This document shows positions 9,070 through 50,953 of a DNA stretch of 64,000 bases, in pieces. Both the position numbers and the translations under genes were made by a program. The first letter of the stretch is position 1, and each line of letters starts with the position of its first letter. The DNA lies in IMG/VR virus record IMGVR_UViG_3300029544_000195. One strand, given 5' to 3'. The notes under the pieces are model-generated. The model did no database searches, was not told where the DNA came from, and was given only the letters and a program-made list of their open reading frames with translations. This DNA is from a virus.

Positions 9070-9777
9070 TCACCTGATATAAACTTTTTTTGAAAAACGA
9101 TAATAATGATATAAAAAATCACTTCGCAGTTTATGTGGCATTGATTTATGAAATGCTTCAAAAGTATTGGCGTATAGTGTGATAGCGAAAGAATATAACT
9201 TATATTTCTTCATTGCTGCCACTCCTTTTGGCCCGGAGAAATATTGATACATTGCTTCCAAATTTTGAAAGCGTGGCATTTGTGATATTGCATATTGCAA
9301 TAAAACACTAAATCGGCGAACTCCTTCAATTCCACCAATCCAGGTGGATGGAAATTTTGAGGCACTGCCAGTATGAACTCGTTCAAACATAGCAATACAC
9401 TGGTCTTCAATGCTTAACCTGAATTTTTTAGGATATAGAAGATAAGCCAAATAAGTCATATCTAAATCGTCTTTACTATACTCTTGTGGAAAATCAATAT
9501 ATTTATTTACTATCTTAGATAGCTTCATCTTTTTCAATACGTTCGATGTGAGATATCTTCGGATGTCCTGCGGCGTCCATTGCAAATATTTTTCCAAGGC
9601 AAAACGAATAATTTTTAATGCCTGCTCTTGTTTTTGCAGCGGTCCTAAATCAGTAAAATAAGCAACCGGAAAAATATCAGTATTTCCGACATACATTCTC
9701 TCATATTCTTGTAAAATTACTAAATCATGATTAATTGTTACTATGTTGTTGTTACTTTCTTGTAATTTGATATCCAT
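9070..9777 (-). CDS. hypothetical protein (235 aa); lone opposite-strand gene
   Basis: ORF with its own minus-strand motif copy (9824-9834) and RBS. No recognisable domain. Confidence 0.45.
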   Translation of the reverse strand: MDIKLQESNNNIVTINHDLVILQEYERMYVGNTDIFPVAYFTDLGPLQKQEQALKIIRFALEKYLQWTPQDIRRYLTSNVLKKMKLSKIVNKYIDFPQEYSKDDLDMTYLAYLLYPKKFRLSIEDQCIAMFERVHTGSASKFPSTWIGGIEGVRRFSVLLQYAISQMPRFQNLEAMYQYFSGPKGVAAMKKYKLYSFAITLYANTFEAFHKSMPHKLRSDFLYHYYRFSKKVYIR

Positions 9778-9823
9778 AAAACATTACCCGTAGGGGTCTC
9801 CTTTCAAAATAATCCTCTATATT

Positions 9824-9898
9824 TAATATGTCTGTTTTAAAACAAAACGAAAACGATATTATAACAATTTTTTCCTAATTACCAAAACAGACATATTA
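9824..9898. promoter_or_regulatory. divergent pair of phage promoter motifs (minus copy 9824-9834, plus copy 9888-9898)
   Basis: taatatgtctg on the plus strand (minus-strand motif) and cagacatatta. Confidence 0.5.
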
Positions 9899-9935
9899 AA
9901 AATATCAATTATAACAACAAAAAGGAGGAATGAAT

Positions 9936-10436
9936 ATGAATGAATTTACAAAAAATGGAAGAATATTTGTTGATATGGATGGGGTTTTAGCAGAATTTCG
10001 AAAGGGCGTTCCAGAAGAAATGCTTTATCGAAAAGGTTATTTTGCTACTTTACGGCCAATTTCATCAGCCTGTCAGATGTTGAATGTGTTAATTCGGTCA
10101 ATGCCGGAAAATGTTTATATTTTAACATCTTACTTGGAAGATAGTCCTTATGCAAAGAGAGAGAAGCTAATGTGGGCTATGAAATATACGGATATTGACC
10201 CGGAACATATTATTTTTGTTCCTTCATCGGTATCAAAATCAGAGTATGTAGCAGCAACAGAGCTTGATTTGTTGATTGATGATTACGGATTAAATCTTGC
10301 GTGTTGGCACGGTACTCCGGTTAAGTTTGTGAATCCGGTTAATAACACTAAGCGAAAGAAGTATAATCATACTTTGGATTATCGCGATAATCCAATTATG
10401 AATGCGTTTCGTGTTCAGATGTTATTATCTATGTAA
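9936..10436 (+). CDS. 5'(3')-deoxyribonucleotidase (NT5C family, HAD-like)
   Basis: N-terminal IFVDMDGVLAEF matches the NT5C/HAD motif I (DMDGVLADF). Start chosen at the second ATG for RBS spacing. Confidence 0.65.
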   Translation: MNEFTKNGRIFVDMDGVLAEFRKGVPEEMLYRKGYFATLRPISSACQMLNVLIRSMPENVYILTSYLEDSPYAKREKLMWAMKYTDIDPEHIIFVPSSVSKSEYVAATELDLLIDDYGLNLACWHGTPVKFVNPVNNTKRKKYNHTLDYRDNPIMNAFRVQMLLSM

Positions 10437-10827: not shown

Positions 10828-12444
10828 ATGAGTACTTTAAATGTAGTGGAGGTATTATTTAACCATAAACCAGTCGATGTACATTTTCTTAGCAAAAAAA
10901 CATCACAGACAATAACAGTTAGCCCTCAATTTTTATCAGGCAGACATAATCCTGCGTCCCCTGGTGTAAAGATAAGTGGCATTGCCAAGATGTTTGATTA
11001 TTTATATCAAAAAGGCGAACCATGTAGGATGTGTATTTATTTTTCAGCCAAGAATAAAATTGCATATGTTGAATTATCCGTTCCATCTGAAATGATTCAC
11101 AGTTTGATTACGCCAAATGAAGTTCGTGTATATGAAGCTGCCGAATCAATTTCTGAAAAATGGCATTTATTACCACTTATTGCAGTTCAGTGGATGATGA
11201 ATGCGGATTGTTCACTTCTTTCATTTTTAGAAAAAGTTCAAAGTAATATAAGTGCTGTTCAAAATGCAATAGGATTCACTGATGAATTTTATTATTACGG
11301 AAAAGATAAAGGCCTTTTGTCTTCAGTTTCAATTGATTTTGGTAATGCAACCATTTTAGCAGAAGCAAAAAGAGCTTTCCAAAATGGAATGTTTTCCGAA
11401 AAAGCAATAAAATTTGGAGAAATGATATCAGCTCTAGAGCAATATCAAACGAAAAAAGAAACAAATTCATCAAATCAGCAAATTGATTATGAAAAACAAT
11501 GGGAAGAAATCAAAGCTGGAAAATATTTACTGGATTATGAATGGAGAGATGATTTACAAGATTATATCAAACCATTAAGTTTTTTGGATAAATATGTCCC
11601 AGACCGCATGTTTTGGCAATTGTTTCGTATTTTTAAAATACGTACACAAAAAGCACTTACCAGAATAAAAGAAGCTCAAGATGCCGGACTATCATTTCCG
11701 GAGGCACAAAAAGATGATTGTTTAAACATTTTTTTGCATGGCCGCGCCGGTACTGGTAAATCGTACTTATTATACGCATTAAGCGCTGCCTTTGGAATCC
11801 CTGCTCCTTTTACAAACTGTTCAAAGGGAACAGAGGAAGATACGTATGAAGGCATTACAAAAGTTATTGATGGTAAATTAACAGAAATTGAAACATCAAT
11901 GATTAAAGTTTCCCAAAATGGTGGCATGTGGATTGGTGAGGAGTTTGACCTTACTGACCCAGAGGTAAACAAGGGTGTTTTTAATCAATTGACAGAATAT
12001 CCTTATATTGCAATGAAAAGTGGATACAAACCAGTCAAAAGACATCCATTAGCTATTTTCGCAGCCACTTTTAACGTGGGAGAACAAAGCCCTCGTATGG
12101 ACCCGGCGTTATCTTCTCGTTTTGTTCCGTCTTTACGGTTTAAAGACCCAACAAAAGAAGATTTTATTAAACGAATGATAGCTTCCGGAGCCAAAGATGA
12201 TACGGCAAATCAGGTTTATGATGCATATATAAGAATTTTAACTATGCTCAAAGACCCGGATATTAATGGCGAAGAATGTGAGGAATATATTGTTCCTCGT
12301 CTTTGTATTGAAACATGTAATTTAATTGACAAGGACAACTTAGATTTCCGTACAGCGATTGAAATTTGCATGATAAATAAAATCGCAGAAATCAGACCAG
12401 ATGTGGCTGACGAAATTTATGTTGCAATGGATTCATATTTTTAG
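10828..12444 (+). CDS. MoxR/CobS-like AAA+ ATPase with ~290-aa N-terminal extension
   Basis: Walker A FLHGRAGTGKSYLLYAL. Walker B region WIGEEFDL. Adjacent to a vWA partner, the typical MoxR-vWA / phage CobS-CobT arrangement. Confidence 0.65.
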   Translation: MSTLNVVEVLFNHKPVDVHFLSKKTSQTITVSPQFLSGRHNPASPGVKISGIAKMFDYLYQKGEPCRMCIYFSAKNKIAYVELSVPSEMIHSLITPNEVRVYEAAESISEKWHLLPLIAVQWMMNADCSLLSFLEKVQSNISAVQNAIGFTDEFYYYGKDKGLLSSVSIDFGNATILAEAKRAFQNGMFSEKAIKFGEMISALEQYQTKKETNSSNQQIDYEKQWEEIKAGKYLLDYEWRDDLQDYIKPLSFLDKYVPDRMFWQLFRIFKIRTQKALTRIKEAQDAGLSFPEAQKDDCLNIFLHGRAGTGKSYLLYALSAAFGIPAPFTNCSKGTEEDTYEGITKVIDGKLTEIETSMIKVSQNGGMWIGEEFDLTDPEVNKGVFNQLTEYPYIAMKSGYKPVKRHPLAIFAATFNVGEQSPRMDPALSSRFVPSLRFKDPTKEDFIKRMIASGAKDDTANQVYDAYIRILTMLKDPDINGEECEEYIVPRLCIETCNLIDKDNLDFRTAIEICMINKIAEIRPDVADEIYVAMDSYF

Positions 12445-12455
12445 GAGGTGCAATT

Positions 12456-14189
12456 TTGTTTGAAAAAGAATTAAGAAATTTTGAACGTATTTTTCGAGGG
12501 ATAACCGGAAAGCGGTGTGTATGCTTTCCGGAAACACCTCCGGAACTTGGACATACCGATGAAAATGCACATATTTATGTTGCAAAGGACCATGAATATT
12601 ACAAAGGTCTATCTATTGCAGAACAAAAAATGTTTCGGTTGGGAATTTTTACCCACGAAATGCTGCATCAAATTTTTTCTAACTTTTCTTTATTACAAAG
12701 AATGGCAAAAAAATTGGGCGAAAAAGAGTATCGGGTTTTTGCTGAATGTAACAACTTAGTAGAAGATGCCAGTATCGAATTTATGGCATCTAATGTTATT
12801 AAAGGCAAATTATTAAAAGCGTTACAATTCAGCATACAAACAATATATCTTAATACGCCGCAATTGCAGGAAATCCCTTCTCCATATCAACAATTTATTT
12901 GTGCTTTAGTACAATTTGGAGATATGGGAATTTTAAAAGGAGATTTTACTTTCCCGGAATCCAAAGAATGTTTTAATCAAGCAGCTAAATTGTTTGACAA
13001 AGCAGTAGAGAGCCAAAGTACAATTGTAAGAAAAAATTGTGCTGTAAAAATTATGGAAATTGCCAGACCTTTATGGGAGAAGGAAGATTTAGAAGATAAA
13101 TCAAAATCCATTTCAGATTTATTTGGCAGTAGTTCTAAAACCTTAACAAAAGGAGTTTCTTGTTGCGATGGTAAGTCGATTAAAATTCATGAAGATGAAA
13201 CAGAAAATAGCGCATCTGCACGCAGAAAAAAATATTTGAAGAAAAAAACTTCTGGAGCAGATGATAATGATTCGATTCCCGTAATTGCTATTACATCAGA
13301 AGATTTAGACTGGCTTACATCATCAGAAGATTTAGCGGTAAAACGGCAAAGCGAAGAAAAAAAACAAAATCAAGAAGATGCTATAGATAAATCAATTCGA
13401 CCAAACATTTCAGTAGACCGTCTTAGAAATTTAGATGTGGAATGCGGAGTGGAGGAAGAGTACAAAAACCATATGGCAGCTTATCGCCCAATTATAAATT
13501 CTTTTTCAAAAACTTTACAACGCATTTTTCAAAATGATAAAAGTGAAGTTGTAAAAAAGAAAAAAGGGAAATTGAATATTGAGCGATATTATGCTCCTCG
13601 AAAGACTCCTCGAATTTTTGACCGCCGTACTACACCGAAAAATATTAAAGACATGGCGATTACAATTGCAATTGACGAGTCCGGTTCTATGACGGCTGAA
13701 GAAATGGGCAAAAAACGCACTCGAATTGCCAAAGAAGTGGCATTATGTTTCGCAGAAGCTTTTTCTCCATTTAATGTACCATTATATGTCTTTGGTTATC
13801 ATGATGATGTAACACATCATCATTATATTAAATGGCGTAACACAAGAAAAGAACGCACAAAATTACTTGTGTATAATTGTTATGGCTGTAATCATGATGC
13901 AGCAAGCATTAATTATGCAGTTGAATTATTGAAAAGCCGAAAAGAAAAACATAAGCTTTTAATTGTTATTACAGATGGTATTCCATCAATTGGAGAACCA
14001 TTGGACGTGCAGAACGAAGTACGTAAAGCTCGAAAAATGGGATTTGCCGTTTTGGGTGTGGCGATTGGAAATGATGCCACAGAAGCAATAAAAACGATGT
14101 ATGGAAAAGATTTTTTTCATGTTACATCAACAGAGACAGCTTTTAAAAATGTAGCTAAAATCATTTCAAAAATGATTCAATCATGGTAA
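12456..14189 (+). CDS. HExxH metallopeptidase-like + von Willebrand factor A domain protein (DUF2201/CobT-like), TTG start
   Basis: N-terminal FTHEMLHQIF (HExxH). C-terminal vWA with MIDAS IAIDESGSMT and VITDGIP. AGGAGGTG RBS 5 nt before TTG. Confidence 0.6.
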   Translation: MFEKELRNFERIFRGITGKRCVCFPETPPELGHTDENAHIYVAKDHEYYKGLSIAEQKMFRLGIFTHEMLHQIFSNFSLLQRMAKKLGEKEYRVFAECNNLVEDASIEFMASNVIKGKLLKALQFSIQTIYLNTPQLQEIPSPYQQFICALVQFGDMGILKGDFTFPESKECFNQAAKLFDKAVESQSTIVRKNCAVKIMEIARPLWEKEDLEDKSKSISDLFGSSSKTLTKGVSCCDGKSIKIHEDETENSASARRKKYLKKKTSGADDNDSIPVIAITSEDLDWLTSSEDLAVKRQSEEKKQNQEDAIDKSIRPNISVDRLRNLDVECGVEEEYKNHMAAYRPIINSFSKTLQRIFQNDKSEVVKKKKGKLNIERYYAPRKTPRIFDRRTTPKNIKDMAITIAIDESGSMTAEEMGKKRTRIAKEVALCFAEAFSPFNVPLYVFGYHDDVTHHHYIKWRNTRKERTKLLVYNCYGCNHDAASINYAVELLKSRKEKHKLLIVITDGIPSIGEPLDVQNEVRKARKMGFAVLGVAIGNDATEAIKTMYGKDFFHVTSTETAFKNVAKIISKMIQSW

Positions 14190-14197
14190 AGTATTCA

Positions 14198-14225
14198 AAA
14201 AAAGCCCCTTTATGGGGCTTTTTCT
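14198..14225. terminator. bidirectional terminator
   Basis: aaaaaaGCCCCtttatGGGGCtttttct between convergent genes. Confidence 0.6.
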
Positions 14226-15354
14226 AATTAAAATAGTTGTCAATTGACATATCATTTACAATATCTTCTGCAACTAAACGATATTTATTATCATTCGATA
14301 TGTTGCCGACATCTAAATTATAAAAATGTTCCGTAATTGCTTTTTCTGCCAAATTACGGACTGTTCGTGCATTTGCAAAATTAGAGTTTTTCTTTTTTGA
14401 AAGCAATATTTTTTCTAACTTTTCTAATGCTTCTAAACTGACTACCATGTTTTCGGCATAAATCAAATTGATAAAAATTCGCTGCATTTCTTCGATTGTA
14501 TAATCTTCAAACATAAAATAGTTTTTTATGCGAGATGCAAGTCCAGAATTTGAGTTAAATAATTTCTTCATTTCTTTTTTGTACCCGGCTAATATAACAA
14601 TCAGATTAGTTCTTTCGTTTTCCATTTCGTTTAAAATGGTAGATAATAATTGCTGCCCTAGTCCGTAATTGCCTTGGACAAGAGAGTAGGCCTCATCAAT
14701 AAATAATATTTTCCCTTTTGCCCTTGCTAAGAGCATTTTAGTACGTGCAATTGGGTCCTCTCCGGATTTGAAAAAGTTACCATCAACATAAATATATTCA
14801 TTACGTTTTATGTATTTATATTGATATAGAAATCCTGTTAGAATACCGGCAATTGTTGTTTTTCCAGTTCCGGGATTACCTAAAAAGCACATGTGCATAT
14901 TATTAATGGGGTGTTTTTTATCCTTTATTTGCGATTTAAAACGCAACACTTCTTGTTTGACTTTTGTTAACCCGATTAAATCATTTAAATCCTCTTCTGG
15001 ATGCTTACTGCCTTTTTTAACAATGCTTTTGAATTCCGCATCAGACAACAAGGATTCATTTTTTAATAATTGCATCTGTGCTGCCGCATCTCGTTGTTGT
15101 TTTGTTAAATGCTTGTGCTTTCCAGACTTGAATTGACGAGTTGCCTGTTCTAGTCGTTCTTTTCTTAAAAAACTTCGCAAAACAAAACATCCAATCCAAA
15201 ATGCAAATCCAATTACGCCAGCTAAAATATAAGTCAATTGCGTAAAGTGGTAATCATTAATGGATAACCATATCAAACTACCCCAGCCAATAATTGGAAT
15301 GATAAAAAACAAAATGCATCCTAAATTTAATAACAAGGTTCGTAATAATTTCAT
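14224..15354 (-). CDS. membrane-anchored SpoVK/CbbX-family AAA+ ATPase
   Basis: Two N-terminal TM helices. LNDLIGLTKVKQEV...FLGNPGTGKTTIAG...ILFIDEAYSL...VILAGY...SRI, a close match to the SpoVK/CbxX signature. Confidence 0.7.
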   Translation of the reverse strand: MKLLRTLLLNLGCILFFIIPIIGWGSLIWLSINDYHFTQLTYILAGVIGFAFWIGCFVLRSFLRKERLEQATRQFKSGKHKHLTKQQRDAAAQMQLLKNESLLSDAEFKSIVKKGSKHPEEDLNDLIGLTKVKQEVLRFKSQIKDKKHPINNMHMCFLGNPGTGKTTIAGILTGFLYQYKYIKRNEYIYVDGNFFKSGEDPIARTKMLLARAKGKILFIDEAYSLVQGNYGLGQQLLSTILNEMENERTNLIVILAGYKKEMKKLFNSNSGLASRIKNYFMFEDYTIEEMQRIFINLIYAENMVVSLEALEKLEKILLSKKKNSNFANARTVRNLAEKAITEHFYNLDVGNISNDNKYRLVAEDIVNDMSIDNYFN

Positions 15355-15896
15355 GATAATTCTCCTTTCTTTTTTTCATATTGTTGATTGATTTCTACAA
15401 AAATAAGTGCGTCTCCACCATTATCCGGATGGTATTTTTTGACCAGTTTTTTGTATTTTCGCATTAAATCTTTTTTCGTATTACATTTGTCAAAATAACC
15501 GGTTAATGTATTAGACGGAACAACATCAACATTCTCTTTTTGATATTGTTTGAAGCGTTGCTGCTTTTTATAGTCTTGCACGGACTCTTTTAATTGCTCA
15601 AAGTACATGATAAACCGCCCTTTAAGGTTTGTTATTTCATCTAATGTATTATAAATTTTTTCTAATTGACGTTTTCTCTTTAATTTTGTAATTAAAGTAC
15701 GTACTTCATCCAGTTTATCTGTTATCCCCTTGTTTGTTTGCATCATTTTGGCGTAAATTGCATCATCCACAACAGCAGATGCCGCTTCTTCAAGATAATC
15801 AACAATTTGATTCCTTAATGCGTTTATTTGCTGAACATCATCATTAAATTCATCAATCAGAGCGTTCTTTTCGGATAATAGGGTATAATTCATCAA
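15351..15896 (-). CDS. J-domain (DnaJ-like) protein
   Basis: C-terminal KKDLMRKYKKLVKKYHPDNGGD (HPD motif). 4-nt ATGA overlap with the downstream AAA+ gene. Confidence 0.6.
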   Translation of the reverse strand: MMNYTLLSEKNALIDEFNDDVQQINALRNQIVDYLEEAASAVVDDAIYAKMMQTNKGITDKLDEVRTLITKLKRKRQLEKIYNTLDEITNLKGRFIMYFEQLKESVQDYKKQQRFKQYQKENVDVVPSNTLTGYFDKCNTKKDLMRKYKKLVKKYHPDNGGDALIFVEINQQYEKKKGELS

Positions 15897-17352
15897 GCTC
15901 CTCCTTTTCTTGTTGAATAGAAAATTCTTCTTTGTTAAACAAATAGGACCATTTTTGATAGTCTCTAATAATTTGAAACTGCTTTAATATTTTGACTGAC
16001 CATAATTTTCGCTCTTTAATTAAGCCGGAGACTAATCGCTCTACTTTTTTTTCTGAAACATGTAAAATATGAGCGATTGTTTTATTGGTTTTGTATTTCT
16101 TTTTTAAAGCAATAATGGTTCTCTTTTCTTTTTCTAACTGCTTTTGTTTTGTGTTCGTTTTCCTTTTTTCATAGTATTTTTTGCAATAAGCAGCATTGTT
16201 TTTTACTTTTGGTTGAATGCACTGTAAATTAAGGCGTTCTCCCAATTCTTTTGAAACACCTAATTTTTCCATAAGTGTAGATGTTTTCATGTAATAATTT
16301 TTATGTATCGCAGTACAGATGCAATTTTGCAATTTTTTTTCGGACAAAGGGCAGTTAAAATTGTCATTAAACTGCCAAAGAGCAGCCCATACTTTATCCA
16401 TATTGCAATATAACAATTTTGCGTGAATATAAAAGGCAAAACATAATTGATTACGATGCCCAATTTCTGCATGATTTTGTTTATAATATTCTTGTATTGT
16501 CTGAATATCTCTTATTCGTGAAATATTCAATTCTTTGCATGAATGATGATGCTTCTTTTTTTTGCTTTGTTTTTTCCAAGCAGAATACCATACTGGGTTT
16601 TCCCATTCGCCCAATACAATATCCATATAATCCATTAAGGTTTTGCGTTTTGGAGTATCTAGAGCCCAGCCATCATGGTCTAATTCATTTTCTTCAATTA
16701 CTTTGATTTCTTTATACGCAGCGGTCCAATCGACACAATATGTTTGCAATTCATTATTCCATTTATAACTAATTTTACTTACTTTAGCATTTTTTGTGTT
16801 ATAACTGCCCGGCAATCGAATGAATGATTGAAGACCTTGTGTCTCTGCACAAAAATCAAAAAGCGGATATTCATTAATTTTTGCCACCAGTTTTTTTTGT
16901 ACCAAATCTAAAGCTTGCATTTGTTTTTTTCCGGAGACGTGTCCATTTAACAAGTAAATAAGGCGAAACTGATTGCCGTATTCAATGTAATATGGAACTG
17001 GAATAATAGAATTATCATGATATAATTCGCGAATTGCGCAAATTGCTTCTTCTACAGAGGCAGACTTATCTCTGCCAAACTTATAATCAACATCAATGCA
17101 GAAAGCATAGCAATTAAAAATATCATTTCGTGTTCCGGTTAAATTTGCTTTGTTTTTAAAGGTGTTAAAGCTCATATAAACATCTTCTCTTGGAAATCCG
17201 GATAAAACTTTAGTCAAATTATTAGCTTTTTTTAACCAGGAAACCTGATGAAACTCCTGCTTTGCTATAGTCGGACACCAAAATTTAACTAGTTCTGCGC
17301 CGGTTGCTTGTTCAAATATGGAATTAAAGAGAGTAGTATAATCCATATGCAT
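15853..17352 (-). CDS. DNA primase/replication protein (AEP-like N-terminal domain + PriCT_1 domain + C-terminal HTH)
   Basis: CIDVDYKFGRD acidic motif. Region GHRNQLCFAFYIHAKLL...FNCPLSEKKLQNCICTA matches the PriCT_1 pattern. C-terminal KTNKTIAHILHVSEKKVERLV looks like an HTH. Confidence 0.5.
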   Translation of the reverse strand: MHMDYTTLFNSIFEQATGAELVKFWCPTIAKQEFHQVSWLKKANNLTKVLSGFPREDVYMSFNTFKNKANLTGTRNDIFNCYAFCIDVDYKFGRDKSASVEEAICAIRELYHDNSIIPVPYYIEYGNQFRLIYLLNGHVSGKKQMQALDLVQKKLVAKINEYPLFDFCAETQGLQSFIRLPGSYNTKNAKVSKISYKWNNELQTYCVDWTAAYKEIKVIEENELDHDGWALDTPKRKTLMDYMDIVLGEWENPVWYSAWKKQSKKKKHHHSCKELNISRIRDIQTIQEYYKQNHAEIGHRNQLCFAFYIHAKLLYCNMDKVWAALWQFNDNFNCPLSEKKLQNCICTAIHKNYYMKTSTLMEKLGVSKELGERLNLQCIQPKVKNNAAYCKKYYEKRKTNTKQKQLEKEKRTIIALKKKYKTNKTIAHILHVSEKKVERLVSGLIKERKLWSVKILKQFQIIRDYQKWSYLFNKEEFSIQQEKEELDELYPIIRKERSD

Positions 17353-17378
17353 GTGCTCCTTTCAAAAGTCTATAAGTG

Positions 17379-17425
17379 TAATATGTCTGTTTGAAATGAA
17401 AATCGAAATCATATTATGAGCAAAA
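17379..17425 (-). promoter_or_regulatory. bipartite phage promoter (minus strand) driving the primase/J-domain/AAA+ operon
   Basis: Reverse complement reads GCTCATAATATGATTTCGATTTTCATTTCAAACAGACATATTA. Confidence 0.5.
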
Positions 17426-17574
17426 ATTTAGCAGATGAGCTTCAAAGTTTCCCAAGAGCGGTACAAACAATACCTATACATATAGTCTGTGAAAAAAATG
17501 AGGGTAGTAAGAAAATGTATTGATTTTGGTGTGTAATGAGCCATTTCCCGTTGATTTAAGAAAAAATGATATAA

Positions 17575-17585
17575 CAGACATATTA
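17575..17585 (+). promoter_or_regulatory. phage promoter motif
   Basis: ATAACAGACATATTAAG 19 nt upstream of the start. Confidence 0.45.
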
Positions 17586-17604
17586 AGACTAAGGAGGAAT
17601 TTAT

Positions 17605-19476
17605 ATGATTAGTTTGCAGATGGGTGTTATCCCTAACTTGGATATTTTGAGTAAATTGTCAGATATTAACAAAAGAAAAAACTGCTCAGAAAAAATAAAA
17701 AAATATTTGAATGCTGAATTGTCGGAGAGCGAAATGCTAATTGATTGGTCAAAAGCAGGACGGGATTATGATTTAATTCCATGGGCTGATAATAATGATT
17801 ATTTATCCTTATGGGAAGAGCGTCATGCACAGAATGAGTATTATTTAGATGACAAACATATTCTTGGTTCAATGGTTGCTTTTGAAGTTATTGTGGGATA
17901 TGAAAAAGAATTGGAAATGGACATTGAGAAGTGGGGACGTATTCAGTATGATTGGTTTTGTGAAGAATTTTCAGAAGAAAATGTTTTATCGGCAATGCTG
18001 CATTTAGATAGCGAAGCTTATCCTCATTGTCATTTTTTAATTTACTATACGACAAAAGAAGGCGTTATTACAGAATCTCCTTATATTGAGCAGGGAAAAG
18101 TAAGTGCGCAATTTCTTGCTAAATATGAAGATGCAATGAAAAAATTTCAGTTAGACGCTATAACTAGAGAAAAATTGGCAAATTCAATAAAATCAAATGA
18201 GCCTGAGAATAATTCGGATTTTTATTTAGCAACAATTGACCGTTATATATCTGAAAATCCAAGAAGCGCTATTGATGACCAGGAGTATATTTATGACACG
18301 GTGGGCCAGTTGTCGCAAATAGCTTCTGCGTTAAGTATAGAACGACAAGAAGAACTTTTAACAGATTTAATTCACTATTTTATGCGTGTAGAGAAAAATA
18401 CGTTAAAGCAAGCGCAAAAAGGGATTCTTCTAAAAGAAAGCTTCTTTAAAGAGGTGAAAAAACGCTTAAAACAATTAGGGGTTGAAAAGTCAGAAGAAGT
18501 AGATATTATGCTGAAAAGAATTGATAGTGCTATTTATGGTAATTACATTCTTGACCCATTATTAAATGACGAATCTATTTCAGATATTAAAGTAATTGCG
18601 CCAGACAAAATTCGAGTTAAGAGATATGGCCGGCGCTTAACGTCTAATCTACATTTTCGGGGAATTGATGATTATTACCGTTTTTTAAATGGAATTGCGA
18701 TTCGCAATAACACAGATTTAAGCCCTTTTAATGCTGTCCAAAATTTTACAGATAAGTTTTCTAATGATAAGTGCATTATGCGTATTGATATTTGTACAAC
18801 TTTTGTGAATTCAGTGGGGTGGCCGTATTTACATATTCGCAAGGTGCCAAAGAAAAAATATACAATAGAAGATTTAATGAATTTTGGAATGCTTGATGTC
18901 AAAACAGCAGCTTACTTAATTGATAAAGTGAAAAACGGAAAAGGAATATTATTTACAGGAAAAGGTGCATCTGGTAAAACGACTTTGATGAATACGTTAC
19001 TTGATTTGATTTCCTATAACAATTCAGGCCTGGTTATTCAGGAAAACGAAGAATTGTTTTCTAATAAACATCCAGATTTAATGTTTCAGCATGTTGTTAC
19101 TAGCCGCCGGCAGAACGAAATTCAATTTGACCTAAAAGATTTAGCGCGAAATGGCTTGTTGACAGATTTGGATTATTTTGTTATCGGGGAAATCAAGGGT
19201 GGAGAAGCATTTTATTTTTTAAATGCGGCATACACCGGGCACAAATGCTGGGCTTCTTGTCATGGGGCTTCCTCTACGGAGGCAATTAATAAATTAGCGG
19301 ATTATGTCACCTATGAATCCGGGTATTCGCAGGCAGAAGCGAAAAAAATGCTTCAATCACTGGAAACTATTGTGTTTATGAAAAACTTTAAGGTGACAGA
19401 GATTTCAGAAATTACCGGTTGGAACGAAGAAAAGAAAGACTTAACATATCGGGCAATTTATCGTGGAATTGGGTGA
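17605..19476 (+). CDS. CpaF/VirB11/TadA-family secretion ATPase (type II/IV secretion NTPase)
   Basis: LDPLLNDESISDIKV...PDKIRVKRYGRR...GILFTGKGASGKTTLMNTL...VIGEIKGGEA...AYTGHKCWASCHGASSTEAINKL follows the CpaF/VirB11 motif order (Walker A, Asp box, His box). Confidence 0.7.
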   Translation: MISLQMGVIPNLDILSKLSDINKRKNCSEKIKKYLNAELSESEMLIDWSKAGRDYDLIPWADNNDYLSLWEERHAQNEYYLDDKHILGSMVAFEVIVGYEKELEMDIEKWGRIQYDWFCEEFSEENVLSAMLHLDSEAYPHCHFLIYYTTKEGVITESPYIEQGKVSAQFLAKYEDAMKKFQLDAITREKLANSIKSNEPENNSDFYLATIDRYISENPRSAIDDQEYIYDTVGQLSQIASALSIERQEELLTDLIHYFMRVEKNTLKQAQKGILLKESFFKEVKKRLKQLGVEKSEEVDIMLKRIDSAIYGNYILDPLLNDESISDIKVIAPDKIRVKRYGRRLTSNLHFRGIDDYYRFLNGIAIRNNTDLSPFNAVQNFTDKFSNDKCIMRIDICTTFVNSVGWPYLHIRKVPKKKYTIEDLMNFGMLDVKTAAYLIDKVKNGKGILFTGKGASGKTTLMNTLLDLISYNNSGLVIQENEELFSNKHPDLMFQHVVTSRRQNEIQFDLKDLARNGLLTDLDYFVIGEIKGGEAFYFLNAAYTGHKCWASCHGASSTEAINKLADYVTYESGYSQAEAKKMLQSLETIVFMKNFKVTEISEITGWNEEKKDLTYRAIYRGIG

Positions 19477-44608: not shown

Positions 44609-44835
44609 TTTAAGAACAAAAAGAGGCTTTCTATAATATAGGAAGTCTTTTTTTATGACAAATAACGGAAAATGGTATATTGCAGAGAATATTTAATACA
44701 TAATGTTACCACCCTCATTTTTTTCACAGACTATATGTATAGGTAATATAGAGCTGAGGGGGAGCTGCTTACAGTTACAACTTCTGGTTTCCCTACCAAT
44801 TTTCTTTATAATGGGATTTTATCTCACCGGACAAA

Positions 44836-44905: not shown

Positions 44906-45502
44906 ATGTATAGAAGAAAATTCAATTCAGAATTATGGAAGAAAATTTTTGAAAACCATGTAGCTACTTTTACTGACTATGGAAACATTAAAGTATTGGA
45001 CTTCAAAGCGCCGGACACAAATATTTATCGAATCCGGTTTCTTTTTGAAGAGGATTATTGCCGCTTACATATTAGTGGTGATTTAGGTGAGCTGATTGCT
45101 GCAAATTTCGATAATATGACCTTCGACAAATTTTCTGATTATGTAAATAACATCAACTATTTCGAGGAAAAGATACTTTGTCATAGCAGACCGATTTTTA
45201 AATATGATATAGAAAAAGCCAAGGAACAGTTAAAAGAACTGGCAGAAAAAAATGATTGGTCGGGTTATTTATGTGTTGACTCAGATGAGCTTGATATCGT
45301 TATGGATGATATCTTGATGGGCTTTAATGATGAAAAAGGTATCGGAGACAAAGGATATGATTCGTTAGTTGAATTAGAAGAGGATGCATATAAATTTGTG
45401 AAAAATATTGGCCGAGAAGAGACCGATATTCTTGATATTTACATGCTCGCATTTAAACTGGCAAAGAAACAATTGAATAATAAAGGAGGTAATGAAGTAT
45501 GA
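44906..45502 (+). CDS. hypothetical protein (198 aa)
   Basis: AAAGGAGGA RBS. Confidence 0.45.
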   Translation: MYRRKFNSELWKKIFENHVATFTDYGNIKVLDFKAPDTNIYRIRFLFEEDYCRLHISGDLGELIAANFDNMTFDKFSDYVNNINYFEEKILCHSRPIFKYDIEKAKEQLKELAEKNDWSGYLCVDSDELDIVMDDILMGFNDEKGIGDKGYDSLVELEEDAYKFVKNIGREETDILDIYMLAFKLAKKQLNNKGGNEV

Positions 45503-47680: not shown

Positions 47681-47781
47681 GTAGTGTAAGGATGATTAAG
47701 AAAAACATTCTTACATGGAGAACACATTAAAGGAGGGCACATAGCGGAGAACACATTTTTGGAGAACACAGCCAGTAAAAT

Positions 47782-47855
47782 AGGGAGCTAACTCAGTTGG
47801 TTAGAGTGCCTGTCTTATACACAGTTGGTCGTGGGTTCGAGTCCCACGCTCCCCA
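47782..47855 (+). tRNA. tRNA-Ile (anticodon UAU), A1·C72 and C27·U43 mismatches
   Basis: D-arm ACTC/GAGT. Anticodon loop CTTATAC. T-arm GTGGG-TTCGAGT-CCCAC. Acceptor AGGGAGC/GCTCCCC. Confidence 0.5.
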
Positions 47856-47954
47856 TTTCTTAAAGTTTGCGGGAAACCTTCTTTCGTATGTTATTAAATG
47901 CAAAGAGAAGTTCTTTAAAGCCCGGAGTGATAACCGCAAACGCTTCGGGCAAAA

Positions 47955-48026
47955 GGAAGATTAGCTCAGTGGCAGAGCGTTCGGCTGTTAACCGAATGGT
48001 CATGGGTTCAAATCCCATATCTTCCT
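47955..48026 (+). tRNA. tRNA-Asn (anticodon GUU)
   Basis: Acceptor GGAAGAT/ATCTTCC. D-arm GCTCAGTGGCAGAGC. Anticodon stem TTCGG/CCGAA with loop CTGTTAA. T-arm ATGGG-TTCAAAT-CCCAT. Confidence 0.75.
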
Positions 48027-48161
48027 CTCCTTAATGCTTGCATGTATCGTGAAACATTTTTCCAATGTATCATGATATGCGTTTGGAACTAATAATCCAT
48101 CTCTTTCGGATAGTTTATTCTGTTATGTCAAGGCGGAAAAGCAAGCACCTTGACAAAACCT

Positions 48162-48233
48162 AGCGGTATCGCCAAGTGGTAAGGCACAGGACTTTGACCC
48201 CTGTATTCGTAGGTTCGAATCCTACTACTGCTG
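48162..48233 (+). tRNA. tRNA-Gln (anticodon UUG)
   Basis: Acceptor AGCGGTA/TACTGCT (one G-U). Anticodon loop CTTTGAC. T-arm GTAGG-TTCGAAT-CCTAC. Confidence 0.6.
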
Positions 48234-48269
48234 CTGTCCAAATATAATGGACATTACCAATACTTTGGT

Positions 48270-48397
48270 TCTGACGTTGGCATTTGCGGAAATGCATCGG
48301 GCGAGAAGAATAAGTTGCAAGAGTTTGTTTTTTTCCCATTTGAAACTTTCTTCATGAACTGCCCGAATTTGTAAGGTTCGAATCCTTACCGTCAGAT
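48270..48397 (+). ncRNA. tRNA-like element with a ~58-nt insertion replacing the anticodon loop
   Basis: Perfect 7-bp acceptor TCTGACG/CGTCAGA. D-arm GGCA...TGCA. Stem CGGGC/GCCCG encloses 58 nt. T-arm TAAGG-TTCGAAT-CCTTA. Confidence 0.35.
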
Positions 48398-48671
48398 TTG
48401 CGCTTCACTTTCTCTAGCGAGGGAGGATAGGAGCGCATAGGACAAACTTCCTGAAGCCGAAATGGTTTAACCAGTCGCAGGTTGGGTCTTGGCAAAAAAC
48501 TGTAACTGTAGAGAGCAAAACAAAGACATTGCGACCAGGTTTTTGCTGGCAGTTATAGACATCTTTAGTGATAACGAGAACTTGCAAAAAGCAAGTCGGG
48601 GAGTTTCAAAGATGTTATTGTTTTCCTTATTTTTTGGGTTGGCCCCCTCTCTTTTTGCGAGAGAGGGGAAT

Positions 48672-48742
48672 GGCGGCTTAGTCAAAAGGCAAGACAATAG
48701 GTTTTCATCCTATGAGTGTGGGTTCGAGTCCCGCAGCCGTCA
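48672..48742 (+). tRNA. tRNA-Glu (anticodon UUC)
   Basis: Acceptor GGCGGCT/AGCCGTC. Anticodon stem ATAGG/CCTAT with loop TTTTCAT. T-arm GTGGG-TTCGAGT-CCCGC. Confidence 0.7.
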
Positions 48743-49305
48743 TTTAAACATGATTATCTCAGTGAAGAAGGAGTTTTCAATCCTGCTGAGACGCATGGTA
48801 ATAAGTTGAATTAATTTGAGATATTGAATTGATTAACAACTTTTATTAAGAAGTGATTCTTGATATGGAGACAGAAACTGTCAACAACGCTGTGTGGTGT
48901 ATCATTATAAAGAGGTCAAAAGCAGAATCCTTGTGGCTGACATAATAGACGCCCGATGTTCGGGAATAATCCGTTGATGTGAGAGGTGTGAGAGACCACG
49001 GACTAAACGGAAATCTCAACAAGTCAGTTTGCCTTGAACCTGAGAAATCAGGGTATAACACAAGAAATTCGTTAAAGTAGCGGTATGGCAGAACTATTAA
49101 ATTTATCTTTTGCTTTATAGAGCAAATAGGAAAAAATAATATTCTCTGAAAGAACCGTGAAATTTGTGGGTATCATTCCCACCCGTGCTTAGACAGTGGT
49201 AAGAAGCCAAGGGTCGCTCCCGAACGCTCAGACTTATCATCACGGTGGCCGAATATGACTGAGTTTATAATGGATAAAGGGAAGCCTTAATCATGTTTAT
49301 TTTTT

Positions 49306-49393
49306 GCAGATATAAGCCTAATTGGTAAGGCAACGCTTTGCTAAAGCGTTAGTAACCGGCAACGGTGTATAGGTTCAAATCCTATTATCTGCG
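49306..49393 (+). tRNA. tRNA-Ser (anticodon GCU), class II with long variable arm
   Basis: Acceptor GCAGATA/TATCTGC. Anticodon stem ACGCT/AGCGT with loop TTGCTAA. Variable arm ACCGGCAACGGT. T-arm ATAGG-TTCAAAT-CCTAT. Confidence 0.75.
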
Positions 49394-49539
49394 TTTGCAT
49401 CACAATAGTGATGTAATAGACCGTTTTAATCTTAGATGGATAAAGATTGTAATGATTTGGCTGTTTTACCAGAACTTAGTTTAGAGCAAGGGGCGCTTCC
49501 GGAAGCGTAAGGTCTCTCTGAATCCATCCAATAACAAGT

Positions 49540-49648
49540 TGATGTGTGGCGGAAAGGAAGACGCAGGAAACCACAAGTACGATGCCAAAGTGAGCCGAAA
49601 GGATATGGACAAAGGCATCATGAGAGGTTCGATTCCTCTCCACATCAA
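49540..49648 (+). ncRNA. tRNA-like element (~109 nt) with expanded body
   Basis: Acceptor TGATGTG/CACATCA. T-arm GAGAGG-TTCGATT-CCTCTC. Internal GATGCC...GGCATC stem. No canonical anticodon arm identified. Confidence 0.3.
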
Positions 49649-49864
49649 GATTCCGGTTCATTACCGGATAAGGCAGGCGTTACGGTAGTCCCTGCTGAAA
49701 TAATTAAAATGCCTGCGTTGGAAGAATATCCAACGCGGGAAACCGTAGGAAATAATAACGAAAAGGAGGTCAAAGGTTTTATTCGTCCAATAATAAAATG
49801 GACAGAGTAACAATGAATTTTAAGAAAGGATAGCGAAAAAGTTTTCGCAAAAAAGGTGATTATT

Positions 49865-50953
49865 ATGGATGTAAATATTAGTATCGGTATGATTATTTTA
49901 GCAGTTATTGTTTTGGTTGTAATCGGTATTATTGTAAAAAATGTGCAGGTGGTTCCTCAATCTTCCTGTCGGATTATTGAACGATTAGGAAAATATAAGG
50001 CAACTTGGCAGGCCGGACTTCATGTAAAAGTCCCATTTATTGATAACGTAGTACGGTATATTACCTTAAAAGAGCAGGTTTTGGATTATCCGCCGCAGAA
50101 TGTTATCACAAAAGATAATGTAACAATGCAGATTGATTCGGTTGTTTATGCAACCATTTTTGACCCTAAGAAATTTACATATGGTGCAGAAGACCCATCT
50201 TCCGGATTACGAAATCTGACGGCAACAACACTTCGAAGCATCATCGGAGAAATGGAATTGGACGAAACGCTCTCGTCAAGAGAAGTTATTAACGGTAAAA
50301 TGCAGAAGATTTTGGATGAAGCAACGGATGCTTGGGGAATTTGCGTCAGTCGCGTAGAAATTAAAAATATTATTCCTCCGGCTGAAATCGAAGAAGTCAT
50401 GACAAAACAGATGCGTGCAGAACGCGAGCGAAGAGAGACATTACTCCAGGCTCAGGCACACAAAGAATCTGTAGTAGCAATGGCGGAAGGAGACCGTCAG
50501 GCTAAAGTGTTAGCCGCTGAAGCAGAAAAAGATGCTGCAATTGCACTGGCAGAAGGCAAGGCTAAGTCAATTAAACTTGTGTATGAGGCAGAGGCAGATG
50601 GTATTCGCATGTTGGCTAATTCGCAGATGAATGACAACGTGCTGCGTTTGAAATCCATTGAAGCAATGAAAGATGTTGCGGATGGACAGGCTACAAAAAT
50701 CTTTATCCCGACAGATTTAAGCCAAAGTATTGCTTCTATGGGAATTTTGGGGGACATGCTTGGTACGGCAGAGCAGAAAACGTCCGATGTATCAAGAGAG
50801 CAGTTGAGAGAAAGCCGGATTCAGGCGAAAACAAATGAGAAATTAGAAAAAGACTCTTGCGTATATGATTTAGAAACTAATGAAATCACACTAAAGGCTG
50901 CTGAATCAAATGCAAAAACATCGTCTGAGTTAAATGAAGATATTTCAAGATAG
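49865..50953 (+). CDS. SPFH/band-7 (stomatin/prohibitin/HflK-C-like) membrane protein
   Basis: N-terminal TM helix. IIERLGKYKATWQAGLHVKVPFID...VTKDNVTMQIDSVVYATI...LRSIIGEMELDETLSSRE fits the SPFH domain. C-terminal coiled-coil tail. Confidence 0.7.
   Translation: MDVNISIGMIILAVIVLVVIGIIVKNVQVVPQSSCRIIERLGKYKATWQAGLHVKVPFIDNVVRYITLKEQVLDYPPQNVITKDNVTMQIDSVVYATIFDPKKFTYGAEDPSSGLRNLTATTLRSIIGEMELDETLSSREVINGKMQKILDEATDAWGICVSRVEIKNIIPPAEIEEVMTKQMRAERERRETLLQAQAHKESVVAMAEGDRQAKVLAAEAEKDAAIALAEGKAKSIKLVYEAEADGIRMLANSQMNDNVLRLKSIEAMKDVADGQATKIFIPTDLSQSIASMGILGDMLGTAEQKTSDVSREQLRESRIQAKTNEKLEKDSCVYDLETNEITLKAAESNAKTSSELNEDISR

Follow-up and report, generated by a model that had tools for sequence, protein, structure and literature searches.

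A three-gene operon for a candidate AEP initiator-primase, a J-domain protein and a membrane-anchored AAA+ ATPase on what looks like a giant plasmid-like element

Why should the gene for a replication primase be followed, in overlapping frames, by genes for a J-domain protein and a membrane-anchored AAA+ ATPase? The question was raised by the initial annotation of a 64-kb stretch of DNA (hereafter the window), in which these three genes were taken for part of a phage. Here the gene products, the signals flanking the genes, their relatives and the nature of the element are analysed computationally.

Organisation of the operon and its flanking signals

The operon lies on the minus strand and comprises three overlapping ORFs of 499, 180/181 and 376 aa. 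Gene 1 (15853..17352, minus strand) encodes an AEP - PriCT-1-like - HTH protein of 499 aa that is a candidate replication initiator-primase, gene 2 (15351..15896, minus strand) a protein of 180 or 181 aa in which three N-terminal helices precede a minimal J-domain at the C-terminus, and gene 3 (14224..15354, minus strand) an AAA+ ATPase of 376 aa that is membrane-anchored and belongs to the CbbX/SpoVK/EccA clade. The common orientation of the genes and their overlaps, 44 nt between genes 1 and 2 and 4 nt between genes 2 and 3, were re-found as initially annotated. Gene 2 can start at a TTG, which gives 181 aa, or at the adjacent ATG at 15893, which is better spaced behind a GGAGG box and is the probable start, shortening the first overlap to 41 nt. 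An AAAGGAG-type ribosome-binding site precedes each of the three starts.

A recurrent promoter-like motif, box B (AAACAGACATATTA; 17379..17392, minus strand), is located 26 nt upstream of the gene 1 ATG. The window holds 34 copies of AAACAGACATATTA against 1.4 expected, lying 25-50 nt upstream of genes and in the same orientation as those genes. At about 10 of 31 box-B sites, that of the operon included, there is an extended -10-like TTTTGYTYATAATATGATTTT box upstream, which at the operon is box A (17399..17426, minus strand; extended -10-like TTTTTGCTCATAATATGATTTCGATTTT). Genes 1-3 are served by this one box A/box B site only. As such the bipartite promoter that had been proposed stands as a recurrent motif pair but not as a sigma-70 promoter, no canonical -35/-10 sequence being found upstream of the operon in a consensus scan, which did not score box A as such a promoter. 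Further upstream a conserved block, ACCCTCATTTTTTTCACAGACTATATGTATAGGTA (17471..17505, minus strand), contains a palindrome and is a candidate operator, ssi or origin element. It occurs only twice in the window, the second copy being at 44712-44745 on the plus strand, and is kept upstream of the primase gene in related lineages (L012, L004, L002 and L009).

The operon had also been placed between two bidirectional terminators. The downstream one was recovered as an inverted repeat between the convergent AAA+ and VWA genes (14192..14230), forming a strong bidirectional intrinsic terminator with a fold of dG -19.3 kcal/mol and z -5.6. The upstream one was not, with no G+C-rich hairpin in 17353-17604, an interval that is instead a divergent promoter region common to the operon and the relaxase-ATPase gene. 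No origin features (iterons, GC-skew switch) were found adjoining the operon.

The three gene products

Searched against Pfam, NCBIfam and PHROG the gene 1 product gave no match at E <= 0.01; the AEP catalytic fold is present in its predicted structure model, spanning about residues 1-230 (16663..17352, minus strand). AEP catalytic residues were found on alignment, most clearly in motifs I and IV. Motif I, the metal-binding hhhDhD/E of the superfamily, reads FCIDVD, with D87 and D89 invariant in 26 relatives and kept in at least 90% of 74 remote relatives. Motif II is sxH, with Gln in place of the His in RepB'/PolpTN2-like families; its putative counterpart here, YGNQFR, its position placed by eye, lies on the expected strand with Q128 conserved at 90% or more and R130 invariant, while nowhere in the AEP domain of the 26 aligned relatives is a His invariant or near-invariant. 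The motif III region (AETQ; hD/E in the superfamily), where the third metal ligand would lie, has A169, E170 and Q172 invariant and D166 conserved at 90% or more, resembling the RepE/RepS variant of this motif in which Gln is preceded by an acidic residue (Kazlauskas et al. 2018, PMC5862659). Motif IV, an Arg with a hydrophobic residue next to it and a co-varying Asn six positions further on (here R179-LPGSY-N185-xK187), has R179-L and N185 invariant in the 26 relatives and at least 90% conserved in the remote set, with the same R-to-N spacing as R231/N237 of PolpTN2 (PMC5862659). Motifs I and IV agree with the PrimPol-PV1 definitions (PMC5862659), and motif III probably does so too.

The catalytic domain is followed by a PriCT-1-like helical domain (about residues 272-375; 16228..16539, minus strand) in which R300, F328, N329 and P335 are invariant. 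PriCT_1 (PF08708) is the sole family match for this segment, at 13.6 bits and E 0.053, below the 21.1 cut-off and over model positions 9-58 of 67, and the same model matches 7 of 73 remote homologues with a best E of 5e-4. A C-terminal HTH (about residues 400-450; 16003..16155, minus strand), either LuxR/GerE- or HTH_23-like, was identified by profile matches. RepB_primase (PF16793) matched 2 of the 73 remote relatives and did not match the gene 1 product. The initial description of the primase as AEP, PriCT_1 and HTH was thus essentially right, on the strength of a structure model for the fold, of the sub-threshold match and remote homologues for PriCT_1 and of profiles for the HTH.

RepE/RepS and PrimHYQ uniformly show this order of domains, and in ColE2 Rep it is PriCT-1 and HTH that unwind the DNA (PMC5862659). 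Judged by architecture and motifs, the gene 1 product resembles all three in its three-part build with no helicase domain and in having the motif I DxD and the motif IV R...N(+6), and RepE/RepS in the motif III pair E170-x-Q172; RepE/RepS and PrimHYQ are likewise carried by gut-associated Firmicute mobile elements. However, RepE/RepS keep the motif II His where the gene 1 product has Q128/R130, and an operon with a J-protein and an AAA+ ATPase is not part of the description of the RepE/RepS, PrimHYQ or ColE2 Rep families.

The J-domain of the gene 2 product occupies about residues 131-181 (15354..15506, minus strand). Its HPD tripeptide, for which 15423-15431 codes, is invariant across the 13 relatives aligned. 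Pfam DnaJ scores 21.9 bits over model positions 12-51 of 63, below the 27.8 cut-off, though a profile of five syntenic homologues searched against the PDB found the DNAJA1 J-domain at E 5.7e-6, plus dozens of other J-domains, and the assignment made from the HPD motif is upheld. In the predicted model helices 140-154 and 162-179 (II and III) flank the HPD with pLDDT 85-94, helix I being absent from the prediction and helix IV apparently missing. The best J-domain structural match in Foldseek was Tim14, with a probability of 0.97 but an overall match that was not significant. The N-terminal three-helix region has no recognisable relatives, and the full-length family is small (about 15 relatives). 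A minimal HPD J-domain at one end of a small protein is also seen in DjlA, Tim14/Pam18, Rki and T antigens. E. coli DjlA and mitochondrial Tim14/Pam18 combine a membrane anchor with a C-terminal J-domain, as do the homologues of gene 2 in other lineages, which have their own N-terminal membrane helix, unlike the window copy. Polyomavirus large T antigen couples a J-domain to the viral replication initiator; there the J-domain is fused to the initiator, whereas the J-protein of the window is separately encoded.

The gene 3 product was matched by Pfam AAA and AAA_lid_6. NCBIfam returned SpoVK (3.5e-44), CbbX (4.8e-42) and EccA (1.2e-35), with scores of 150.8, 144.2 and 123.1 bits so far under the equivalog cut-offs of 423, 459 and 467 that the protein is not an orthologue of any of them; a PDB profile match to CbbX reached 5e-35. 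Two transmembrane helices (residues ~1-33 and 39-63; 15166..15354, minus strand) were predicted by hydropathy at a Kyte-Doolittle value of at least 1.6, followed by the AAA+ core and lid (residues ~120-350; 14305..14997, minus strand) with Walker A GNPGTGKTT, Walker B FIDEAY, ILAGY, an arginine in GLASRI and sensor-2 FANARTVRN. Both hydrophobic segments of the SpoVK-like protein first described were confirmed and its signature motifs (GNPGTGKTT, IDEAY, AGY and SRI) are conserved. N-terminal membrane helices are present in nearly all homologues of about 375-380 aa and absent from those of 500-650 aa, the protein belonging to a separate membrane-anchored subfamily distinct from ordinary soluble CbbX. 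With CbbX, SpoVK and EccA it shares a single AAA+ module, AAA_lid_6, Walker A/B, the arginine finger and a sensor-2 FANARxxRN; it differs from them in its two N-terminal helices, which give an FtsH-like topology without the protease, and in its context of mobile-element replication genes. The pore-loop-1 site (GxYIGHT in CbbX) aligns to FFKSGEDPIA with a two-residue deletion, and no aromatic is conserved at this site among 53 family members. Classical substrate threading is therefore doubtful, and the missing aromatic complicates a simple unfoldase model.

Recurrence of the genes and possible function of the operon

The initial annotation allowed that the grouping of the three genes might be coincidental if the 499-aa protein lacked AEP catalytic residues and the AAA+ protein fell among ordinary soluble CbbX proteins, neither of which is the case. 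The grouping is not coincidental: the trio is kept in five lineages (that of the window and L012, L004, L002, L001, and L009/L010) in the order primase - J - (extra genes) - AAA+, with primases 41-49% identical to that of the window. At each of the six distinct loci whose neighbours were read the J gene follows the primase gene, and other lineages have a transglutaminase-like gene and small ORFs separating J from AAA+. In L014 a very distant AEP-PriCT relative is directly upstream of a TM-AAA+ gene. The genes are also found apart: L003, L011 and small plasmids have a primase-like gene but neither J nor AAA+, and a TM-AAA+ gene stands alone next to SSB and Pol III alpha (L006-L008) or after a ParM-like gene (L015). 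The recurrence of the trio in distant relatives suggests that the element may bring along chaperone helpers of its own to assist its replication, and the N-terminal membrane helix of the J homologues fits a membrane site common to J and AAA+.

A tblastn search of PLSDB found relatives of the primase only on C. perfringens and P. megaterium plasmids. The relative (27% identity, 80-89% coverage) is the sole plausible rep gene of three complete plasmids that are only 12-20 kb in size, and the small plasmids with such relatives are typed as non-mobilizable. The sole genome match was to a Eubacterium MAG and no relative was found in IMG/VR. These sole rep candidates, together with the AEP-PriCT-1-HTH architecture, support an initiator role.

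We tentatively favour a replication-initiator operon whose second and third products, J-protein and AAA+ ATPase, would act with host DnaK to remodel the initiator complex. Since its architecture is of the plasmid initiator-primase type, the gene 1 product would most likely recognise the origin via PriCT-1/HTH, open it and make the first primer. The gene 2 product, a type-III J-domain protein, would recruit host DnaK through its C-terminal J-domain and stimulate the DnaK ATPase, bringing this chaperone to the initiator or to the nucleoprotein complex that the initiator forms, with the membrane-anchored ATPase remodelling or recycling the initiator complex at the membrane. The three products may in this way form a membrane-associated replication or remodelling complex. 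There is precedent in P1 RepA (DnaJ/DnaK/GrpE or ClpA), RK2 TrfA (ClpX) and F RepE, activated by DnaK/DnaJ or Clp ATPases (PMC4980987), in which an initiator is paired with Hsp70 and/or an AAA+ remodeller as proposed here. In these systems, however, the chaperones are all host-made, Rep is a winged-helix protein and the ATPase in P1 and RK2 is Clp, whereas here a J-protein and a CbbX/SpoVK-type ATPase are element-encoded and co-transcribed with an AEP initiator. The single upstream promoter-like motif, the single downstream terminator and the overlapping ORFs with strong ribosome-binding sites argue for this chaperone-assisted initiator. Against it are the primase-like and TM-AAA+ genes found alone, the insertions between J and AAA+, the fact that no origin was identified next to the operon and the lack of a conserved aromatic pore loop. 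We know of no CbbX-clade ATPase that works with Hsp70. In addition, pAMbeta1 RepE is reported to be monomeric (PMC4980987) and so would have no need of monomerisation, which counts against activation by chaperones.

Somewhat unlikely is a loose co-transcription with no mechanistic link, the primase replicating the element and J and the membrane AAA+ being separate proteostasis or host-manipulation cargo, for example for membrane-protein quality control or a re-wiring of host DnaK as by RB43 Rki. The occurrence of each gene without the others in some relatives and the extra genes between J and AAA+ fit such cargo, as does the existence of a phage J-protein with a non-replicative role, Rki of phage RB43 targeting and stabilising sigma-32 (PMC3486835). 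Against it stand the order and orientation kept in five lineages whose primases share 41-49% identity with that of the window, where the frames overlap, the tiny full-length J family (about 15 relatives) with its members following the primase gene in 6/6 distinct loci read, and the pairing of a distant AEP with a TM-AAA+ gene in L014.

It is less probable that the operon is a transfer or establishment module, in which the AEP would be a conjugation-associated primase for the complementary strand on transferred ssDNA, and J and AAA+ would help to unfold or refold transferred proteins or aid establishment in the new host. RSF1010 RepB', Sog and TraC are primases likened to such a role, RepB' acting at ssi hairpins beside a separate initiator RepC and a helicase RepA. 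RepB' (PDB 3h25/3h20) has no C-terminal HTH, unlike the gene 1 product, whose PriCT-1 and HTH are typical of origin-specific initiators, and on small plasmids typed as non-mobilizable there is no rep candidate other than a relative of the gene 1 product. The relaxase gene lies next to the operon within a long stretch over which synteny is conserved, and as such its adjacency is not specific evidence for transfer.

That the AAA+ protein is a strict DNA-replication ATPase, akin to a helicase or clamp loader and filling the helicase-loading gap of AEP-PriCT-HTH replicons, is highly improbable: weak PHROG matches (clamp loaders 3.4e-12, DnaC-like loader 0.0028), the RepE/RepS and PrimHYQ elements without helicases (PMC5862659) and the TM-AAA+ genes near SSB and Pol III alpha speak for it, but the SpoVK/CbbX/EccA matches are far stronger (1e-44 to 1e-36; PDB CbbX 5e-35), the lid is AAA_lid_6, a membrane anchor is unusual in loaders and there are genes for RecD2 and UvrD helicases in other parts of the window.

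Nature of the element

The element looks like a giant conjugative plasmid-like element, its host being a low-GC Firmicute, probably one of the Clostridia. The window encodes tRNAs, a 623-aa relaxase-ATPase fusion with a MobV/Mob_Pre N-terminus and a 762-aa coupling protein (T4SS-DNA_transf and TraG-D_C, E 2e-61); no VirB4 was seen in its 64 kb. Near-identical synteny was found on a 403-kb contig, and the closest DNA match is a Butyrivibrio megaplasmid. The phage setting initially assumed was not borne out: capsid, tail and terminase families were absent from the 33 window proteins scanned with Pfam and the five scanned with PHROGs, which included few of the small ORFs at 26-48 kb, the 64-kb window itself being one part of an element of 400 kb or more, and none of 50,697 phage records gave a DNA match. 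A phage replication module forming a membrane-associated replication complex during infection is accordingly most improbable given the coupling protein, the relaxase, the megaplasmid match and the lack of primase relatives among IMG/VR viruses, even with tRNAs on the element, with NrdD, dUTPase, Pol III alpha, SSB and a MoxR-VWA pair like CobS/CobT in the window or its relatives, such tRNA, nucleotide-metabolism and replication genes being also found in jumbo phages, and with SpoVK-like ATPases in Bacillus phage G and Brevibacillus phage Emery.

Extended beyond this operon, the chaperone-assisted initiator reading would have giant plasmid-like elements of gut and rumen Firmicutes carry a membrane-tethered chaperone station dedicated to activating or recycling an AEP initiator-primase, a generalisation that we consider doubtful. 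Such a station would consist of a J-protein capturing host DnaK and a pore-loop-less, FtsH-like-anchored SpoVK/CbbX-type AAA+ protein, and replication initiation of the element would then be organised at the membrane and depend only in part on the J-proteins and Clp ATPases of the host.

By description, the element shares with the Inocles, giant plasmid-like elements of oral Streptococcus (PMC12340149), a GC content of about 32-34%, related contigs of 353-403 kb, VirD4, a RecD-like helicase, tRNAs, cell-surface proteins and, in relatives of the window, Pol III alpha. The Eubacterium MAG primase match and the Butyrivibrio megaplasmid DNA match point to Clostridia rather than Streptococcus as the host.

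The operon and its upstream region

Three minus-strand genes form an operon-like unit of conserved linkage, encoding an AEP-PriCT-1-like-HTH protein with apparently intact catalytic motifs of the AEP primase superfamily, a J-domain protein and a membrane-anchored AAA+ ATPase. The three ORFs lie exactly where the initial annotation had placed them, with gene 1 (499 aa) at 15853-17352, gene 2 (181 aa from a TTG) at 15351-15896 and gene 3 (376 aa) at 14224-15354, each start being preceded by an AAAGGAG-type Shine-Dalgarno sequence. In gene 2 an ATG at 15893 directly follows the TTG codon and is better spaced behind a GGAGG box. The frames of genes 1 and 2 overlap by 44 nt (41 nt counted from the ATG) and those of genes 2 and 3 by 4 nt.

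The operon had been thought to sit between two bidirectional terminators, of which the downstream one was recovered as a hairpin with a perfect A-tract, stem and T-tract at 14192-14230, folding at -19.3 kcal/mol (z -5.6 vs shuffles) between the AAA+ gene and a convergent VWA gene. The upstream one was not, no G+C-rich hairpin being found in the divergent intergenic region 17353-17604 that gene 1 shares with a 623-aa gene at 17605-19476. The convergent VWA gene (577 aa, CobT-like) is paired with a gene for a MoxR-type AAA_5 ATPase (538 aa), the pair spanning 10828-14189 on the plus strand, an arrangement relative to the operon that is also kept in the relative loci L009, L010 and L012.

The bipartite promoter proposed for the operon proved to be a real and recurrent pair of motifs and not a canonical sigma-70 promoter, a consensus scan of 17400-17450 yielding nothing convincing and the TTGAAG and CATAAT upstream of gene 1 being spaced 21 nt apart. 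The motif proximal to gene 1, AAACAGACATATTA (box B, 17379-17392), has 34 copies in the window at up to two mismatches vs 1.4 expected, nearly every one in the orientation of a gene whose start codon follows after 25-50 nt. Among the 31-34 sites are those at 5215, 6864, 9824, 9885, 10781, 17379, 17572, 19510 and 20341, with further examples at 22722, 26902, 31878, 38209, 39153, 44833, 47579, 47667 and 55446. Approximately 10 copies, including that of gene 1, have an extended -10-like box some 22-25 nt before them, of the form TTTTG(C/T)T(C/T)ATAATATGATTTT, also written TTTTGYTYATAATATGATTTT, which upstream of gene 1 lies on the minus strand at 17399-17426, while many other copies sit immediately 3′ of a terminator where a -35 element would not fit. 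Since the copy of gene 1 is the only one on either strand between 10783 and 17572, one promoter-like site and one terminator bracket the trio, a layout that fits a single transcript of all three genes, which would run from ~17375 to ~14200. In related lineages the motif has diverged, suggesting that its reader is a transcription factor, sigma factor or polymerase that the element itself encodes.

Further upstream of gene 1 is a 35-nt block, ACCCTCATTTTTTTCACAGACTATATGTATAGGTA, containing a palindrome (17471-17505, minus strand). Four other lineages keep it ahead of their primase gene, among them lineages whose proteins are just 42-49% identical. The window has one further copy (44712-44745, plus strand), which lies in ~190 nt of surroundings that are 76% identical and precedes a 198-aa ORF (44906-45502) that shares this duplicated upstream region and has no family match. 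The block is a candidate operator, priming site (ssi) or origin element.

The three encoded proteins

The gene 1 protein gave zero matches at E <= 0.01 to Pfam, NCBIfam or PHROGs. A word-indexed search identified 27 relatives, and a profile built on these reached 1,772 cluster representatives (E <= 0.001). Sequence profiles searched against the PDB matched the HTH alone, and the AEP assignment consequently depends on fold and motifs. By fold, the AEP domain scored 14.1 against that of the cyanophage S-2L PrimPol, 11.2 against the RSF1010 RepB′ primase, 10.0 against Prim-PolC and 9.2 to 8.2 against LigD polymerase domains and PriS small subunits. The invariant residues fit the motifs defining the PrimPol-PV1 supergroup (PMC5862659), with motif I being FCIDVD (D87, D89), motif II putatively GNQ-F-R130 in place of sxH, motif III putatively A-E170-T-Q172, and motif IV R179-L followed six positions later by N185, a distance equal to that of R231/N237 in PolpTN2. 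A Gln in motif II is typical of RepB′ and PolpTN2, and a motif III with an acidic residue then Gln is a variant described for RepE/RepS (PMC5862659). Across 74 remote relatives D87, D89, R179 and N185 are at least 90% conserved. Domains of the LuxR/GerE and HTH_23 types are matched at the C-terminal end. The original reading of this protein as AEP plus PriCT_1 plus HTH was essentially right, the first part following from fold and motifs and the last from profile matches. In ColE2 Rep, unwinding of origin DNA has been reported for the PriCT-1 plus HTH module (PMC5862659).

A tblastn search of PLSDB revealed relatives of gene 1 (27% identical, 80-89% coverage) annotated only as 'helix-turn-helix domain-containing protein' and carried by plasmids of Clostridium perfringens (12-48 kb) and a single one of Priestia megaterium (19.7 kb), for example at NZ_CP075965.1 4293-5645, NZ_CP148656.1 4976-6298 and NZ_CP045269.1 6473-7912 (440-480 aa). 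All three plasmids inspected in full lack any other replication-protein annotation, and these genes are probably unannotated rep genes, although the support they lend to an initiator role for gene 1 is circumstantial because the PLSDB gene tables are incomplete. It is reasonably likely that gene 1 encodes the initiator-primase of its element, while a role as a transfer-associated primase is improbable. The fold-level assignment for this large, uselessly annotated family appears to be new, giving a fold, and hence a likely function, to ~1,700 representative proteins annotated just as 'helix-turn-helix domain-containing protein' and bringing into the family the probable rep gene of small C. perfringens plasmids.

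The gene 2 protein scores 21.9 bits against Pfam DnaJ, under the threshold of 27.8. The J-domain with an HPD motif claimed for it is nevertheless upheld by profile, conservation and model. The HPD is kept in five syntenic homologues that are ~30% identical to it, as is largely the pattern around it (C.TKK.L.KKYR.L.KKYHPDNGGD...F....EYE), and a profile of these five matches dozens of solved J-domains in addition to DNAJA1 (E 5.7e-6). The predicted model has three long N-terminal helices of moderate confidence, forming a generic helical bundle, then a disordered linker and J helices II/III (pLDDT 85-94). Foldseek of the full model against the PDB gave no significant match, while the J-domain part pairs with Tim14 (Foldseek probability 0.97). 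Because the J-domain bears the HPD, recruitment of host DnaK is very likely. The full-length family is tiny, with ~15 relatives. Several homologues (P0291, P0302, P0304, P0306 and the copy in locus L002 at 9583-10203) open with a hydrophobic helix of membrane type, which is missing from the window copy. In such helix-bearing lineages the J-protein would be membrane-anchored as well as the AAA+ protein.

The gene 3 protein contains the Pfam domains AAA and AAA_lid_6 and matches the NCBIfam models SpoVK (3.5e-44), CbbX (4.8e-42) and EccA (1.2e-35), all far under the equivalog cut-offs and thus indicating a member of the clade, not an orthologue. In the PDB its matches are CbbX (5e-35) and EccA1 (7e-27). 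Hydropathy predicts two membrane helices, at residues 1-33 and 39-63, which are common to nearly all homologues of 375-380 aa and absent in SpoVK-like homologues of 500-650 aa. Together with the clade matches these helices bear out the proposal of a membrane-anchored SpoVK/CbbX-type ATPase. In curated plasmids and phages the matches were to the soluble core alone. Conserved elements are Walker A, Walker B, the arginine finger and sensor 2, while the aromatic pore loop of CbbX (GQYIGHT; pore-loop-1 GxYIGHT) aligns to a shortened, variable stretch at residues ~193-202. The lack of a conserved aromatic pore loop argues against a simple threading mechanism. Membrane anchoring without the usual pore loop defines a branch of the SpoVK/CbbX ATPases that appears to be a new subfamily.

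Linkage of the trio and its possible meaning

The association of primase, J-protein and AAA+ ATPase is conserved but facultative. The identical three genes occur in the same order in L012/L013, where the primase is 89% identical to that of the window, and in L004, where it is 47% identical. In L002 (primase 45% identical) the J and AAA+ genes are separated by a transglutaminase-like gene, and in L001 (42%) this gene is joined there by extra small ORFs, an arrangement repeated in L009/L010 (primase 537 aa, profile E 4e-207), the trio assignments in these loci being backed by HMM scans. Elsewhere the genes occur alone or in part, with the primase only in L003 and L011, the AAA+ gene only, adjoining SSB and Pol III alpha, in L006-L008, and the AAA+ gene following a ParM-like gene in L015. 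L014 encodes a very distant relative of AEP-PriCT type (hhalign probability 93%) immediately upstream of a membrane-helix (TM) AAA+ gene, and no J gene intervenes. By HMM scan L003, L006-L008, L011, L014 and L015 all lack a J gene, and the 259-aa protein encoded upstream of the AAA+ gene in L015 proved not to be J-like. All of these solo and partial loci lie where large mobile elements have regions for replication or maintenance.

The inserted protein has a transglutaminase core (cysteine-protease-like; 269-277 aa) and is encoded at 10758-11567 in L001, 10200-11033 in L002 and 4503-5312 in L009. L001 and L009/L010 also have an ORF of 159-175 aa between the J and AAA+ genes, both genes being absent in the window. 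The AAA+ gene of L001 (12273-13407) is in two ORFs of 153 aa and 219 aa, as might result from a frameshift or an assembly error or from its being a pseudogene.

That chaperones activate plasmid initiators is a classic finding, every chaperone in the textbook cases being host-derived, and the replication initiator of polyomavirus carries a fused J-domain. The activation of plasmid initiators is a conformational one, brought about by DnaK/DnaJ/GrpE, ClpA or ClpX (PMC4980987). The leading reading, a tentative one, has the J-protein and the AAA+ ATPase working on the initiator complex at the membrane. Against it count the report that pAMbeta1 RepE is a monomer (PMC4980987), the facultative linkage and the absent pore loop. 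We also know of no CbbX-clade ATPase that cooperates with Hsp70. The main rival, put somewhat lower, is that both are independent cargo for proteostasis or host manipulation, for which the J-protein Rki of phage RB43 provides a precedent (PMC3486835). Full-text searches found no paper in which a J-protein and a SpoVK-type ATPase encoded by the element accompany an AEP primase or a plasmid initiator, and while the parts of the operon are of known kinds, an operon coupling them appears to be new. If the J-protein and AAA+ ATPase do act on the initiator complex, an initiator-primase with its own J-protein and AAA+ ATPase would mean that mobile elements can supply these helpers, and such chaperones may aid replication in hosts whose own chaperones misfit the initiator.

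The element carrying the operon

The phage setting of the initial annotation found no support, with no DNA match to known phages, no primase relatives in a scan of IMG/VR and no structural or packaging family among 33 scanned window proteins. The sole plasmid DNA match was 250 nt (68%) in an ATPase gene of a Butyrivibrio megaplasmid, and the sole match for primase relatives in a scan of GTDB genomes was a Eubacterium MAG. Near-identical synteny was found in metagenome contigs of 403 kb (ERZ24911587 NODE_8; L012) and 112 kb, and relatives of the element carry Pol III alpha, SSB, NrdD and dUTPase. The window (GC ~33%) encodes a VirD4/TraG coupling protein (56944-59232, E 2e-61), the helicases RecD2 and UvrD, NT5C, HD and SPFH proteins in addition to the MoxR-VWA pair, and seven tRNAs, one at 1600 and six at 47781-51325. 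We conclude that it appears to belong to a conjugative plasmid-like element of giant size (at least 400 kb) and not to a phage. The element resembles the Inocles (~350 kb, GC 32%), which have VirB4 and VirD4, a RecD-like helicase, Pol III alpha and tRNAs (PMC12340149), a likeness to be taken as a lead, but its host probably belongs to the Clostridia.

The gene divergent from the operon (17605-19476, plus strand) encodes a 621-623-aa fusion of a MobV/Mob_Pre relaxase N-terminus (residues ~34-184) with a TadA/VirB11/FlaI-type secretion ATPase (residues ~290-620), which is kept in diverged relatives (L002 1300-3165, L003 4595-6463, L012 7868-9739). To our knowledge this architecture has no earlier description, and together with the promoter-like motif it provides a handle on poorly known giant plasmid-like elements.

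Stop-codon recoding was considered as a cause of the many short ORFs, TAG and TGA reassignment giving no gain in ORF length worth noting, and the standard genetic code applies. PADLOC yielded no relevant defence system. A 233-aa protein encoded at 54673-55374 on the minus strand has a weak match to the DnaG-type CHC2 zinc ribbon (E 3.5e-4, under the cut-off), so that the element may have a second protein related to primases. At 59339-64000 on the plus strand a long ORF (more than 1,550 aa), still open where the window ends, carries BspA-type leucine-rich and Listeria-Bacteroides (Flg_new) repeats and is probably a giant surface protein.
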